Positions 2,447-19,001 of a stretch of 64,000 bases of DNA are shown piece by piece. A model generated the notes under the pieces. The model saw only the letters and a program-made list of their open reading frames with translations. It made no database searches and was not told the origin of the DNA. The DNA lies in the NCBI GenBank assembly GCA_963820965.1, contig CAWGCC010000027.1:71270-135269 (forward strand), in the 5' to 3' direction. The position numbers and the translations under genes are program-made. This DNA is from an uncultured beta proteobacterium. Its GTDB lineage: Bacteria; Pseudomonadota; Gammaproteobacteria; Burkholderiales; SG8-39. Numbering within the stretch: position 1 is the stretch's first letter; every line of letters begins with the position of its first letter.

Positions 2447-4131
2447 TCAAGCCGCCTTGTTGCCAACCATTGCTTGCGCTTGCCGCTGCATTGCCTTCAT
2501 CACCTCGCTCGCCGCTCCAAATTGCTTCACGCGTCCGGCCTCGAGCACCAGAATCTTGTCCACGTGGGCGATGAGTGACGGCCGATGGGTGACAATGACC
2601 GAGGTCACGCCTTCGTTGCGCAGGCCGCTCAGTGCTTGGGCGAGGGCAATCTCACCCGCGCCGTCCAGGTTGGAGTTCGGCTCATCGAGCACCACCAACC
2701 GTGGATCGCCGTACAGCGCACGGGCGAGCGCAATGCGCTGGCGCTGGCCGGGAGACAGGCGCGAGCCTTGTTCTCCAACCTGCGTGTCGTAGCCCTGCGC
2801 CAGCGTAAGAATCAGCTCGTGCGCGTTGGCGCGTTTCGCCGCCGCGACGACCGCCTCGGAATCGACCTTGCCGAGGCGCGCGATGTTGTCGGCCACACTG
2901 CCATCGAAGAGCTCGACGTCCTGGGGAACATAGCCGATCCAGGGACCCAGATCCTGGCGCGGCCAGTAGCGCGAGATCGGCCCCATCGAGGCGCGCCGCA
3001 CCTGCGGTGGCCGCCCACACGCCGGTCAGCAGGCGCGCGAGGGTGGATTTGCCCGCCGCGCTTGGGCCGATAATGGCGAGGCCTTCGCCCGGCGCAAGGC
3101 TGAACGCGATGTTGAATAGAATCAGCTTGTCCGAGCCGGGCACGCGATACGATATGCCTTCGGCTACCAGGCAGCCTTCAGGGCGCGGCATTGTGAGGCT
3201 CGGCTCGCGCCGGTCGAAATCTTCCGACAGTTCCCGCAGGCGTCGGTAGGCGCCGCGCGCCTCGACTCAACATGCGCCAGCTCGACACCACTTGTTCGAC
3301 CGGTTGCACCGCTCGGCCCAGCAATATCGTCGTGGCGATCATGACGCCGGCCGAAGCTTGCTGGGTGAGCACGAGGTAGGCGCCCAGCGCTAGCATGAGT
3401 ATTTGAATCGCTTGACGCAGAAAGCGCGTCGCGGCGCTGAAGGCGACGCTGCTGCGGCTCGCCCTGGTCTGCAGCGCCGCAACTTGGTTTTGCAGCATGC
3501 GCCAACGCTCCAGCAATCTCTCCGTCATCCCCAGCGCCTGCAGCACTTCCGCGTTGCGCAGCGAACTTTCCACGTACTGGGAAGCGCGACGCCCCTCCTT
3601 CTGCAGGCCCTCCAGGACGCTACGGCTGATGCGGTCATTGAGCCACGCCAGGGTCAGCATGAGGAGGGCAGCCAGCGCGGCGCCAAGACCCAAGGCCGGG
3701 TGGAACGCCCAAATCACCAACACGTACACCACGACCCAAGGCGCGTCGAACACCGCGATCAAGCCATTGGCCGAAAACACACTACGCAGCGCCGCAACGT
3801 CGCGGATACCTTCCGTCCTCGTGCCCTGCGGTGAGCGCGCTGCCTTCGCCACGATCGCATTCACCACCGGCGGCGATAGACGTTCGTCGACGATATTGCC
3901 CAATACGTTCTGCAGGCGGTTACGCACGTAGTCGAGCAACAGCAGGATCAACAGCGCGGCGCCAGTTCCGGCGAGCAACACGAGCAGGGTTTCTTGACTA
4001 TTGCTCGAGATGACGCGATCGAATACCTGCAACGTGAAGATCGCAGGAACGACGAACAGCAAGTTGATGAAGAAGGAAAACGCCGCGATGTAGATCAGCA
4101 GCGGACGCAGTTCGTCCCACAAAGATCTCAT
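2447..4131 (-). pseudogene. Type I secretion ABC permease/ATPase (PrtD/HlyB-like without C39 domain), split into three frames
   Basis: TMD piece 3178-4131 (MRSLWDELRPLLIYIAAFSFFINLLFVVPAIFTLQVFDRV...). Walker A piece in a second frame (GPSAAGKSTLARLL, about 3000-3191). Signature and Walker B piece 2447-3001 (LSPGQRQRIALARAL, LVVLDEPNSNLD). Frame breaks traced to ~3268 (1-nt insertion) and ~2985 (apparent 2-nt loss). Confidence 0.85.
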
Positions 4132-4153
4132 GCGCTATTTCCCTCCGTTCTTC

Positions 4154-4220
4154 CGTCATTCCGGCGGAAGCCGGAATCCGGGATTTCGGCGTGCATTCTG
4201 GACCCCGGCTTTTGCCGGGG
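4154..4220 (+). repeat. REP-like intergenic double-hairpin element (VIPAxAGI-type repeat), copy 1
   Basis: cgtcATTCCGGCggaaGCCGGAATccggg (arms 4158-4165 and 4170-4177) followed by CCCCGGCttttGCCGGGG (4203-4220). The first half recurs at 57637-57666. Confidence 0.6.
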
Positions 4221-4307
4221 TGACAGACGTTGGCGTGGGCTGAGTTTCATCGCTGAAAGTGCTCGGCAGCCTACGGAGGGAGTCGGGCTGCCGGATACAG
4301 CGCTCAC

Positions 4308-4938
4308 CTAAACCGGGCGCTTCGCTCGATCCGCGTGCAGGATGGCTGCGACGATCGGCTCGGGATCGCCCAGCGCTGGTGTCATGTGCCAGCGGTCGTA
4401 GGCGTCGTTGCCGATCCTCACCATGCCGGTGTGCTGCGAGCGGTCGCGATCCACACGCGGATCGCGATCGAAGAATCCTAGCTTGCGGCGAATCACCTCG
4501 AGATCGGCGCGCTTACCGGTGAGGAACAGCCAGCCCGGTCCGATGTCGCGGTCTTCGACATATTCCTTCAGCACTTTCGGTGTGTCGTGCTCGGGCCGCA
4601 GCGTGATCGAATACATGAAGATGTCGCGTCCGACCCGCTCGCCCAGCAGCTTTCTGCACGCGCTGCAATTTCGTGGTGATGATCGGACAGATGCCGTCGC
4701 ACTCGGCGTACATCATGTTGATCGCGACGAGCTTGTCCTTGATCAGGTCGTCGTAGAACTTGACCCGCTTTCCTTCATGCGTGACGAGCACGGAATTCGG
4801 AAAGTATTGCGCGCCATACGTGCGCCGTTGCGGCGATGCCGTCTCGCTCGCGGGTTGGGTTTGGGCTGCAAGCAAACCCAAGGGTGCTAAGGATGCGGCG
4901 GCCCCGAATCCAGCAAGTATGGTCCTTCGCGTTGACAT
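4308..4938 (-). pseudogene. SCO1/SenC-family thioredoxin-fold copper chaperone, one frameshift
   Basis: N-terminal piece 4513-4938 has a Tat-like signal (MSTRRTILAGFGAAASLAP) and the CxxxC motif (AECDGICPIITTKL). The C-terminal piece 4308-4616 (MYSITLRPEHDTPKVLKEYVE...) continues the family in another frame. The break is a single extra g at ~4652 (cagaaaGctgctgggc). Confidence 0.8.
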
Positions 4939-4980
4939 GATGGATCTCCAAGAAAAAGAGCTTCGAGAGGTCGCCGGGGC

Positions 4981-16900: not shown

Positions 16901-18203
16901 TTGATTTCGTCGGCCTGGCGGTTGTGCTCGGAGTGGAACACGTGGTGGACGGCGGTCAGGGCGATGTTCTCGTTGCCACGGCCGTCGCCGGTGATGAAGT
17001 GCCGGTCGAGCAGCTCGTTGTCGTAGGTGCCCGGCTCCGAGAGTCCGACGGCGGCGTCGCTGTCCGGCGCCAGCAGCGCCGGCGACGAACACCGGGGCCG
17101 CGGCATGCGCGATGTCGTTGAGGAAGGCGTGGCCGGTGCGAACGCCGAGACTCGCATCGATCGGCGCACCCGGCGTGCCCGAGGCGAGCCCATCGCCATC
17201 CGGATCCAATGGACCGCCCACTTGGGAGGCTTGCAGCACGATCTGCGCGAAGCCGGTGACAGGATCGGGGATGAACTTGCCGTATGCGTCGGTCGCCAGC
17301 AGCGGCAGGTCGAGGACGTCGGCATCGTCGAGCTGGATGCCGAGCATGGCCAAGGCCTGCGCCTTGACATCGGCCCAGGTGGTGAGCCCGCCGTCGGCGC
17401 CATCGAGCAGCCTGCCGGTGGCGACCGGCTGGCCGGCCGCGTTGAGCTCGTATTCCCGCAGGAACACCTGGTGCGAGGGATGCGAGGTGTAGGTCTGGTT
17501 CTGGTCGACGAAGGGTGTCGTCTGGTTGGTGTGCTCGGTGCCGGTGGGGGTGGCCCGCGTCAGCACCATGAAGTTGGTGGGGCTGCCTTCGACGTAGAGC
17601 GGATCGTCCGGCTGCAGCGGAATGAAGATCGTTTCGTTGCCGCCCTTGTTGACGAGGTCGAGGCCGTGATCGAAGAACTGGCCGAAGAACGTGAACCACG
17701 AGTTGAACGGCGCCGAGAGACCTTCGTCGGGCGCCACGTTCGGAATGGCCAGAAGCGTGCCGAGAGGAATGGGATTGCCATCGAGATCCAGCAGGGCACC
17801 ATCGGATTCGCGTATGGTGCCCAGCCCGGCCTCGACGAAGGCACTGCACGGCCGCCGGGTTGTTGCTGGTCATGTCGACGACCAGATTGCTGATGAGGCG
17901 CGGGTCCGCATCGGCCACGTTGCCGGGGGCGCCGTAGTCCGTGTTGGTGACCGGGCCGAACGTGTCGCCGTCGGCATCATCCCGGTATACCGGGTCGACC
18001 AGTCGCGGAAACAGATTGTCCGCTGCGCCGAACTCGGTCTGGCCCGGCATCAGGTTGTTGAACGACCCATCGACCGTCCGCAGGCCCAAGGGCACGAACG
18101 TGTTCGGGACCAAGCTCGCCAGGTCCGCTCCCGCTGCGTGCGCTTCCGATATGTGGATCTGCTGGAGGATGAATTCGAGGTCGGATCTGATCAGTGTGGC
18201 CAT
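13963..18203 (-). repeat. Tandem duplication unit A inside the RTX gene (peroxidase 1 + RTX block 1 + linker + Ig-like domain)
   Basis: By-eye alignment of 16231-16530 against 11848-12147 gives 265/300 identical bases with no gaps. The offset is 4383 nt, which is divisible by 3. Domain order is repeated in unit B. Confidence 0.8.
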
Positions 18204-18300
18204 TTTGCTCCCCCAGTTGTGCTGTTTGGCAATTCAAGACGCCGACATCAACTCCTGCGCCATCACGCAGGCAATTCGAAAGAAACGACATTGCGTGCAA

Positions 18301-18321
18301 CGCATGAGTGATACTCATGCG
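18301..18321. promoter_or_regulatory. Perfect 9-bp inverted repeat in the lower-GC region upstream of the RTX gene (candidate operator)
   Basis: CGCATGAGTgatACTCATGCG, about 100 bp upstream of the start codon at 18203. It lies inside the only clearly AT-richer stretch of this part of the window (18204-18430). Confidence 0.4.
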
Positions 18322-18473
18322 CAGCTAGGTCATGTCGTATATTCCTATTCAAACGAGTCGCCCGTTATGCCGGCGAAAGCCGAACCTTGTGCCACACTAG
18401 TCTTCGTTCCTTTTCGTCGCAAGACGCCTGACGATTGTTCACGCTTGCAAAATATCGTGACAAACGATCGGCG

Positions 18474-19001
18474 GTTTACGGACGCTGGAGCAGACGACAG
18501 CGGATCGAGGAGCTGCTCGGCATCGGGCCCTCGGGCCTCGATGACTTCACGCCGCTCTACAACATCACGCCGGGCGTCAACACCTGGATCGTTCGCGCGA
18601 AGGACGGGAAGCCGACGCTCTATTCCTACCTATGGGGCCTCGTCCCGTACTGGTCGAAGGATCCGCAAAAGGGAGCCAGGCCCGTCAACGCGCGAGCGGA
18701 GTCTGCGTACGAAAAGCCGATGTTCAAGAAGTTCATACGAGAACGCCGGTGCTTTGATCCCCGCGAACTGCTACTACGAGTGGAAGGAGATGCCGGTCGG
18801 GAAGGGCCCCTACTGCATACGGATGGCAGACTCATCGCCGTTCTTCATCGTCGCACGTGGGAAGTTTGGCACGCGCGGGAGCCCGAGGCGCTCTTCACGT
18901 TCACGGTTCTTACAACCTTCCCGAACGAAGTGTCGGCGACGGTCCACGACCGGATGCCAGAGGAGGGGCTAGCCCCTGCTCACTTACCGGGGCTGGGCTG
19001 A
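18474..19001 (+). pseudogene. SOS-response-associated peptidase (SRAP/YedK family) remnant
   Basis: Family motifs are present but scattered over two frames: YNITPG, WGLVPYWSKDP, NARAES, then IPANCYYEWK...GPYCIRMADSSPFF in another frame, then TVLTTFPNEVSATVHDRMP. The position of the canonical Met-Cys-Gly-Arg start reads gtt tac gga cgc (V-Y-G-R), so both the start codon and the catalytic Cys2 are lost. Confidence 0.75.

Follow-up and report, generated by a model that had tools for sequence, protein, structure and literature searches.

Frame breaks in a giant peroxidase-RTX gene of an uncultured Burkholderiales genome: a probable consensus artifact of collapsed strain variation

The window analyzed here is a stretch of 64,000 nucleotides (nt) from contig CAWGCC010000027.1 of an uncultured Burkholderiales bacterium; coordinates are given in window numbering, and relatives are labeled L001, L002, etc. 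In its left part lies a giant minus-strand gene for a protein with two animal heme peroxidase domains and RTX repeats, the reading frame of which is broken many times. We consider it probable that most of these breaks, and those in several other genes of the window, are a consensus artifact of strain variation collapsed in a long-read metagenome assembly, and not mutations. Most of the breaks are thus probably no real biological feature, and the affected genes are probably intact in living cells. This reading is based on an indel spectrum that consists of insertions, on the absence of a substitution load, on the link between the extra bases and polymorphic sites, and on the example of a MATE efflux gene for which two alleles are available. 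The window very probably originates from a long-read metagenome.

Frame breaks across the window

Reading frames were traced with a hidden Markov model (HMM) that uses only GC content by codon position and stop codons, and with a frameshift-aware protein-to-DNA aligner run with four intact orthologs. The HMM detected ~26 frame switches between positions 7788 and 18183 on the minus strand and, elsewhere, ordinary gene-to-gene frame changes. The aligner placed 37 to 42 frame events in the RTX gene across the four references, of which 36 were backed by at least three of the four. Their density is about one per 270 to 300 nt (~3.5 per kb), as compared to ~1 per kb in the other genes of the accessory block in which the RTX gene lies. 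These figures agree with a previous sequence-only reading of this DNA, in which manual tracing had given 30 to 40 frame changes, roughly one per 300 nt. Approximately 32 to 35 of the 36 to 42 events are single extra bases; shifts of the FS+1 type accounted for 30 to 31 of 38 to 42 events with the three closest references and for 26 of 37 with L007. The genes of the block and the disrupted genes outside it are listed below.

1015..2352, minus strand: HlyD-family membrane-fusion protein of a type I secretion system (T1SS); Pfam HlyD_3; intact
2447..4131, minus strand: T1SS ABC transporter; Pfam ABC_membrane and ABC_tran across three open reading frames (ORFs)
4308..4938, minus strand: SCO1/SenC gene; Pfam PF02630 divided between two ORFs
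4981..6902, minus strand: multicopper oxidase (MCO); Pfam Cu-oxidase_2 and Cu-oxidase_3
6856..7359, minus strand: small conserved ORF; intact; no Pfam family found
7328..18206, minus strand: giant peroxidase-RTX gene; ~3,620 codons once frame-corrected
18435..19001, plus strand: SRAP remnant; Pfam PF02586, profile positions 12-168 of 214
19119..19121, no strand assigned: boundary between block and core; stop codon of a Ser/Thr kinase gene
48257..49601, plus strand: MATE efflux gene; one extra base at ~49132
49565..49958, minus strand: TfoX_N pseudogene; in-frame TAG and two -1-type shifts (three-frame reading)
57705..58066, minus strand: DUF427 (PF04248) gene; -1 shift near 57783 in a short C run (three-frame reading)

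Compared with three intact references (72 to 81% identity), the ABC gene has two FS+1 breaks, at ~3266 and ~2969, neither of which lies in a homopolymer. Three-frame reading of the SCO gene revealed one +1 insertion near 4652 (CAG AAA [G] CTG). The MCO gene has one -1-type frame change, which three-frame reading and an alignment with frameshifts allowed to the oxidases of L026 and L056 placed within a C7 (sense)/G7 run (6620-6626) that separates the signal peptide from the mature part. Alignments and three-frame readings are thus in accordance with the earlier tally of two breaks in the ABC gene and one each in the SCO, MCO (6620-6626), MATE, and DUF427 genes.

At least 35 +1-class events fall into positions 2447-19001, which correspond to 26% of the window, versus a single one elsewhere, and the binomial chance of such a distribution under uniformity is <1e-18. 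All long ORFs of the core are intact single ORFs, and the comparison of the core with L081 (99% identity) over 3.8 kb showed a single in-frame 3-nt indel. Both the concentration of the breaks in the accessory block and the integrity of every long ORF outside it had been recognized from the letters alone. Hidden shifts in the core at 26975/27240 and 31214/31620, which had been flagged by the HMM, were rejected, since both cases correspond to adjacent separate genes.

Indel spectrum, protein conservation, and polymorphic sites

The indel spectrum was obtained from a DNA alignment of the RTX gene of the window with three intact orthologs. There were 31 isolated 1-nt insertions versus three 1-nt deletions, all larger indels were multiples of 3, as they are among the intact relatives, and the gene ends were kept. 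Extra bases of the RTX gene were placed, among other positions, at 17846, 17077, 15670, 14884, 14821, 14611, 14496, 13641, 12983, 11390, 10699, 10535, 9372, 9253, 8920, 8856, 8508, 8134, 7715, 7591, and 7564. The inserted base repeats a neighbor in 6 of the 31 cases and lies in a run of at least three identical bases in 1. Similarly, the two breaks of the ABC gene and those of the SCO and MATE genes are single extra bases outside runs. A second, small class, either run-associated or of the -1 type, comprises the C7 run of the MCO gene, the C run of the DUF427 gene, the SRAP and TfoX lesions, and four to six RTX events. The behavior expected of homopolymer-length errors was nearly absent from the RTX gene and absent from the ABC gene, and was found only for the MCO C7 run, the DUF427 C run, and the SRAP TTT run. 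The sequence-only reading had assigned several indels to G/C runs; this is correct for 6620-6626, whereas at 7594-7597 and 7560-7562 an extra T stands beside the run. Taken as a whole, the indels point in one direction, as is typical of a method and not of mutation.

No in-frame stop was found in the ~3,620 codons of the RTX gene with any reference, and the ABC and MCO genes contained no nonsense codon, if a single doubtful site seen with one of the references is set aside. The RTX gene has no large deletion, and its start (MATLIRSDLEF) and C-terminus are kept. Of the 982 alignment columns that show no variation among 11 intact relatives, 2 are changed in the frame-corrected protein, as compared to 15 to 63 in the intact relatives when counted by the same leave-one-out procedure. 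The corrected protein is also consensus-like, with identities of 0.76 to 0.78 to L002, L004, and L005, which share 0.72 to 0.74 among themselves. Hence, nonsense codons, a mixed and deletion-biased spectrum, and relaxed constraint, the hallmarks by which decay was assessed, were not detected in this gene. Spontaneous bacterial indels are deletion-biased and associated with runs. A gene that has some 40 frameshifts but neither nonsense codons nor a substitution load, and in which insertions outside homopolymers are in tenfold excess, is not what spontaneous mutation would yield. In the comparison with orthologous loci that had been proposed as a check, the RTX genes of the relatives were mostly intact, and the copy in the window showed no decay signature (2 of 982 columns, no stops). 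In the same vein, the peroxidase motifs are indeed perfect, as had been reported, but this is better explained by the absence of inactivation than by the recent inactivation then suggested.

The extra bases are linked to sites that vary among relatives. A column variable among intact relatives flanks 23 of the 31 insertions (74% versus 50 to 52% expected, p=0.011), and in 11 of the 31 the inserted base and its neighbor are two alleles seen in relatives at one position (35% versus 17%, p=0.011). Because alignment itself could favor such allele doubling, the null expectation was derived by removing the 31 bases, inserting random bases at random places, re-aligning by the same procedure, and recounting. 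The density of RTX events also tracks local variability (Spearman 0.47, p=0.003), and no event falls into the two peroxidase cores with the highest conservation.

The MATE gene permits a direct comparison with close relatives. At 49132, the window reads GCG GCGC AGC, L162 (98.7% identity) GCG GCC AGC, and L163 (~94%) GCG GGC AGC. The MatE genes of L162 (447 amino acids [aa]) and L163 (459 aa) are intact, and each lacks one base at this position. Since both relatives are intact, the sequence of the window is a common supersequence of two real alleles.

The same pattern was observed in L080, an independent contig from an ENA metagenome assembly that carries the same RTX gene at 89% nt identity and has a Flye-style name, as do L001, L082, and L163. 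Its RTX gene shows 57 to 61 events, 33 to 40 of which are FS+1, with 42 single insertions versus 4 single deletions, and allele doubling was seen in 14 of the 42 versus 6.8 expected (P=0.004). The insertion positions in the window and in L080 are independent of each other: only one or two are truly shared, one being CTGCA[G]GCC, and L080, although itself error-rich, lacks the extra base of the window at nearly all sites. An apparent excess of shared shift positions in protein coordinates (12 versus 3.4) was rejected, since at the DNA level these were neighboring independent events or alignment effects.

Other contigs differ in the extent of such breaks. L025 and L033 are nearly clean and L017 has errors of the deletion type, so the +1 pattern is not universal in long-read metagenome-assembled genomes (MAGs). 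Flanking genes of L080 (7109-8455 and 1199-4140) and L001 (2749-3514), namely, those for an NtrC-type regulator, a SARP/AAA/TPR regulator, and an ABC ATPase, are occasionally split, far less densely than the RTX gene. At positions 8670-20674 of L017 (Pseudomonas sp. ERMR1:02, "unitig_9," an isolate assembly of PacBio style), there were 8 frame events, 6 of which were of the -1 type, a different pattern of errors or mutations in which deletions prevail.

A consensus artifact and its alternatives

In the mechanism that we propose, reads from at least two closely related versions of the accessory block would have been merged into a single sequence. At places where one or two neighboring bases distinguish the versions, the consensus would retain both alleles next to each other. 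Such a supersequence would cost little if the error model assumes that bases are frequently lost from reads. Each doubled allele would add one base and shift the frame by +1. The hypervariable RTX gene would be the most affected, the more conserved exporter and oxidase genes less so, and the nearly clonal core would have suffered one event in 45 kb, that in the MATE gene; the MCO break, a change in the length of the C7 homopolymer, would belong to a separate class. Which platform was used, that several haplotypes were present, and how exactly the consensus was formed are inferred.

A precedent exists in a collapsed long-read assembly of a heterozygous genome, where indel errors and seeming frameshifts resulted from allelic variants that lie close together (PMC8445201). 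In this case, that of Trypanosoma brucei Lister 427, frameshifts arose where nearby allelic variants move the read alignments, and the genes were recovered after haplotype separation, so that these indels reflect no real loss of function (PMC8445201). The window resembles this case in that its extra bases lie at polymorphic sites and its MATE consensus is a supersequence of two observed alleles. However, Lister 427 is a diploid eukaryote sequenced with PacBio, whereas the window presumably represents a bacterial strain mixture in which haplotypes have collapsed, and its event density within a single gene (~3.5 per kb) and near-exclusive +1 direction are more extreme. Nanopore-only metaFlye assembly followed by one round of Medaka, the latter used "to reduce indel errors," is the pipeline of the Microflora Danica project, of which the relative L025 is a MAG (PMC12313526).

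Several findings weigh against this interpretation. Four to six of the RTX events are of the -1 type, and the HlyD gene, which aligns at full length to L075 and L026 with no frame events, and the small ORF are error-free although they lie within the block. The polymorphism link is of moderate significance (p ~0.01), and a doubled single-nucleotide polymorphism is, formally, one way of reading any extra base. A codon-position test, which asked whether the extra base falls at synonymous third positions, gave 40 to 50% ties, equal to random, and had no power. The sequence CTGCAG occurs within 6 nt of 4 of the 31 insertions, those at 8528, 13384, 14821, and 14880 (null expectation 0.5, P=0.001), hinting at a second, motif-linked source of error. 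No copy of the block with at least 90% identity was found in the protein database, GTDB genomes, and JGI metagenomes, the best reaching 88 to 89%, so that the RTX insertions, having no near-identical relative, are not comparable to a high-accuracy copy as the MATE insertion was. Finally, the Microflora Danica MAG L025 carries an essentially clean homolog, which indicates that the effect is not universal to the pipeline of that project.

Real pseudogenization, by which a horizontally acquired and unused block would be decaying with the RTX gene furthest along, is an unlikely source of most breaks. It would agree with the restriction of the breaks to accessory DNA of lower GC content, with the true remnant represented by the adjoining SRAP gene, and with the real pseudogenes that the genome holds, as illustrated by the TfoX TAG and the DUF427 shift, both common to L162. 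It fails to account for the zero nonsense codons that accompany 36 to 42 RTX frameshifts, for an insertion-to-deletion ratio of ~10:1 outside homopolymers without large deletions, and for only 2 changes at 982 invariant residues, which is fewer than in any functional relative. Furthermore, the +1 break of the MATE gene is absent from both close relatives, whereas the TfoX TAG and the DUF427 shift are shared with L162, and the real pseudogene TfoX has a different appearance, with a nonsense codon that a relative also has and with mixed indels.

The three small disrupted genes illustrate this difference. TfoX_N is a genuine pseudogene and shows how real decay looks in this lineage: it contains a nonsense TAG and mixed 1-nt and 3-nt indels, and the TAG is also present in the independently assembled, 98.7% identical L162. 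In that contig, from a JGI sample, the 64-aa ORF ends at the shared TAG (2151-2345), and several other indels differ between the strains. At ~57783, the window and L162 align without an indel; the DUF427 shift is therefore shared, and DUF427 is probably a real pseudogene as well. The SRAP gene reads VYGRW (18435-18480) where the family has MCGR(Y/F), so that the catalytic Cys2 is replaced; its ORF is extended upstream from a TTG, and its 3' end is missing. In line with the several breaks announced for it by the sequence-only reading, three-frame reading located two shifts, one of +1 at about 18750, within a run of TTT, and the other of the -1 type at about 18850. These data support its classification as a real decayed remnant without the catalytic Cys. 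The decay suggested earlier is consequently borne out for SRAP and for the TfoX TAG and DUF427 shift shared with L162, but not for the RTX gene, given its lack of nonsense codons and its 2 changes at 982 columns. Decaying islands and pseudogene clusters in bacteria have in common with the window that disruptions cluster in accessory DNA, and TfoX, DUF427, and SRAP are ordinary examples. Unlike in such islands, the RTX, ABC, SCO, and MATE breaks of the window come without nonsense codons, larger deletions, deletion bias, or substitution load.

An artifact of another kind, in which random read errors survive because read depth is very low or because a foreign segment with poor coverage was joined chimerically, also appears improbable. 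The error-rich region begins exactly at a synteny breakpoint, the block differs from the core in GC content and taxonomic affinity, and the left end of the block lies outside the window, all of which would be compatible with such a segment. Yet random errors should include deletions and substitutions, whereas the excess is limited to insertions, and invariant sites show hardly any substitution. They should also be spread uniformly, whereas the observed events follow variability, spare the HlyD gene, and prefer polymorphic positions.

Nanopore-only assemblies retain residual homopolymer and methylation-motif errors, which, similar to the breaks described here, produce frameshifted ORFs in otherwise good long contigs. 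The breaks in the MCO C7 run, the DUF427 C run, and the SRAP TTT run, and perhaps the four insertions next to CTGCAG, fit this class. Systematic basecalling errors linked to a motif, such as methylated CTGCAG, or errors of homopolymer length are nonetheless very unlikely to explain the breaks as a whole. Residual errors of this type are expected contig-wide, whereas most events are non-homopolymer insertions confined to the strain-variable block. The proximity of CTGCAG to 4 of the 31 insertions (P=0.001) and the insertion shared with L080, CTGCA[G]GCC, argue for a motif, which would account for at most four to seven events. However, most CTGCAG sites have no error nearby (all 24 in the core, the 4 in the ABC gene, and 6 of the 10 in the RTX gene), and the signal was not replicated in L080 (2 versus 0.7, P=0.15). 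Nor was any consistent motif found at the 31 insertion sites; the enriched TGCAG, GCAG, CGCT, and GCT were each near only 5 to 13 of them. As regards homopolymers, 30 of the 31 insertions lie outside runs of at least three bases. The earlier suggestion of homopolymer or repeat assembly error was thus right about an artifact in the RTX, ABC, SCO, and MATE genes, but not about its mechanism. In the whole window there are 41 CTGCAG (PstI) sites versus 17 ± 3.6 expected from dinucleotide-preserving shuffles.

We attach very little probability to the extra bases being real, be it through a recent burst of ~40 non-homopolymer +1 insertions in an acquired island or through pervasive +1 recoding; if they were, the cause could be a mutational or defense process targeted at foreign DNA or an error-prone single-nucleotide fill-in at repeated breaks. 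Programmed recoding, in which ribosomal frameshifting or quadruplet decoding would carry translation across the many +1 shifts, would match the nearly uniform shift direction and the otherwise perfectly conserved protein, but it is almost certainly not the explanation. There is no consistent shift motif, and neither the inserted base nor its context is constant from site to site. Past each shift, the old frame remains open over hundreds of nt and thus provides no stop or rare-codon pause site. The orthologs are single ORFs and, with few exceptions, do not have the extra bases, nor does the 89% identical L080, and no tRNA is encoded in the window.

The peroxidase-RTX gene, the accessory block, and implications

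Pfam analysis detected PF03098 on the window fragments P0001 and P0005, and the RTX repeats and both peroxidase domains are present in a collinear homolog. Together with PF00353 and with the adjacent ABC_membrane/ABC_tran and HlyD_3 genes, this identifies the locus as a heme peroxidase-RTX T1SS operon. Once frame-corrected, the protein is collinear from end to end, from MATLIRSDLEF to the C-terminus, with intact orthologs of 3,625 to 3,780 aa, and, among the isolate and short-read genomes that were retrieved (Variovorax, Ramlibacter, Pseudomonas, and others), most carry the ortholog as a single ORF of ~10.2 to 12.4 kb. The system thus resembles the heme peroxidase-RTX giants of ~3,600 to 3,800 aa with a dedicated T1SS in Variovorax, Pseudomonas, Ramlibacter, and others, which contain PF03098 twice plus PF00353 and share a small conserved ORF after the gene as well as the adjoining ABC and HlyD genes. 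The copy in the window, 76 to 78% identical to the Variovorax proteins and collinear throughout, differs from them in its frame errors only.

Blastx matched the small ORF of the window to the ORF at the same position in L004, L005, L007, L026, and L080. An ORF of ~125 to 165 aa without a Pfam family follows the peroxidase-RTX gene at this position in Variovorax, Ramlibacter, and L080. The giant protein represents an internal tandem duplication, its two peroxidase plus RTX units being 60 to 70% identical (window 7328-18206; loci L002 to L079). A Variovorax saccharolyticus isolate (L004 and L005) has two full-length peroxidase-RTX paralogs with 74% aa identity on different contigs, which makes it plausible that several copies or variants are present in one community.

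The GC content is ~70% in the core as compared to 61 to 67% in the block (positions 1 to ~19,100), and all genes of the block are on the minus strand except for one, the SRAP remnant. The RTX and ABC genes of the block match Variovorax-like/Comamonadaceae sequences, whereas the core matches uncultured Casimicrobiaceae-like Burkholderiales. L081 (99% nt identity) and L082 (94 to 97%) are collinear with the window down to positions 19120 and 19121, respectively, and then diverge. The block starts exactly where the synteny with these two relatives stops; judged from the sequence, positions 1-19119 may therefore be strain-variable accessory DNA of the Comamonadaceae type or a join made by the assembler. 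The end of shared homology (window 19119-19121) corresponds to position 3800 of L081 and position 12371 of L082. Past the kinase stop, L081 continues with TctC and 2-hydroxyacid dehydrogenase genes and L082 with guanylate cyclase/FHA genes, which are unlike each other, whereas in the window this stop is followed by the SRAP remnant and then the RTX block. The breakpoint is either a hot spot of variation in gene content or an assembly join. Scans of the window for tRNAs and Rfam families found nothing and hence gave no clue to an integration site. A small strain-specific indel of the core concerns window 26792-27849 (~1.06 kb), which is missing from L082 and contains two small genes, one beginning MEQELLKALAHF at ~26966 and the other beginning MNPNVRFTKTDKGQ at ~27310.

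Taken at face value, the breaks would lead annotation to miscall the peroxidase-RTX protein, the exporter, the copper chaperone, and the MATE pump as pseudogenes and to infer a decaying island. A spectrum of only +1 insertions, with no nonsense codons, no substitution load, and extra bases at polymorphic sites, provides a diagnostic for such artifacts in long-read MAGs that requires no reads. A region so rich in errors is a marker of strain-variable DNA, in this case of an accessory block that probably follows the kinase gene as an insertion. What remains is ordinary biology, namely, an uncultured Burkholderiales genome with a peroxidase-RTX/T1SS block of the Comamonadaceae type and three small pseudogenes that look real.

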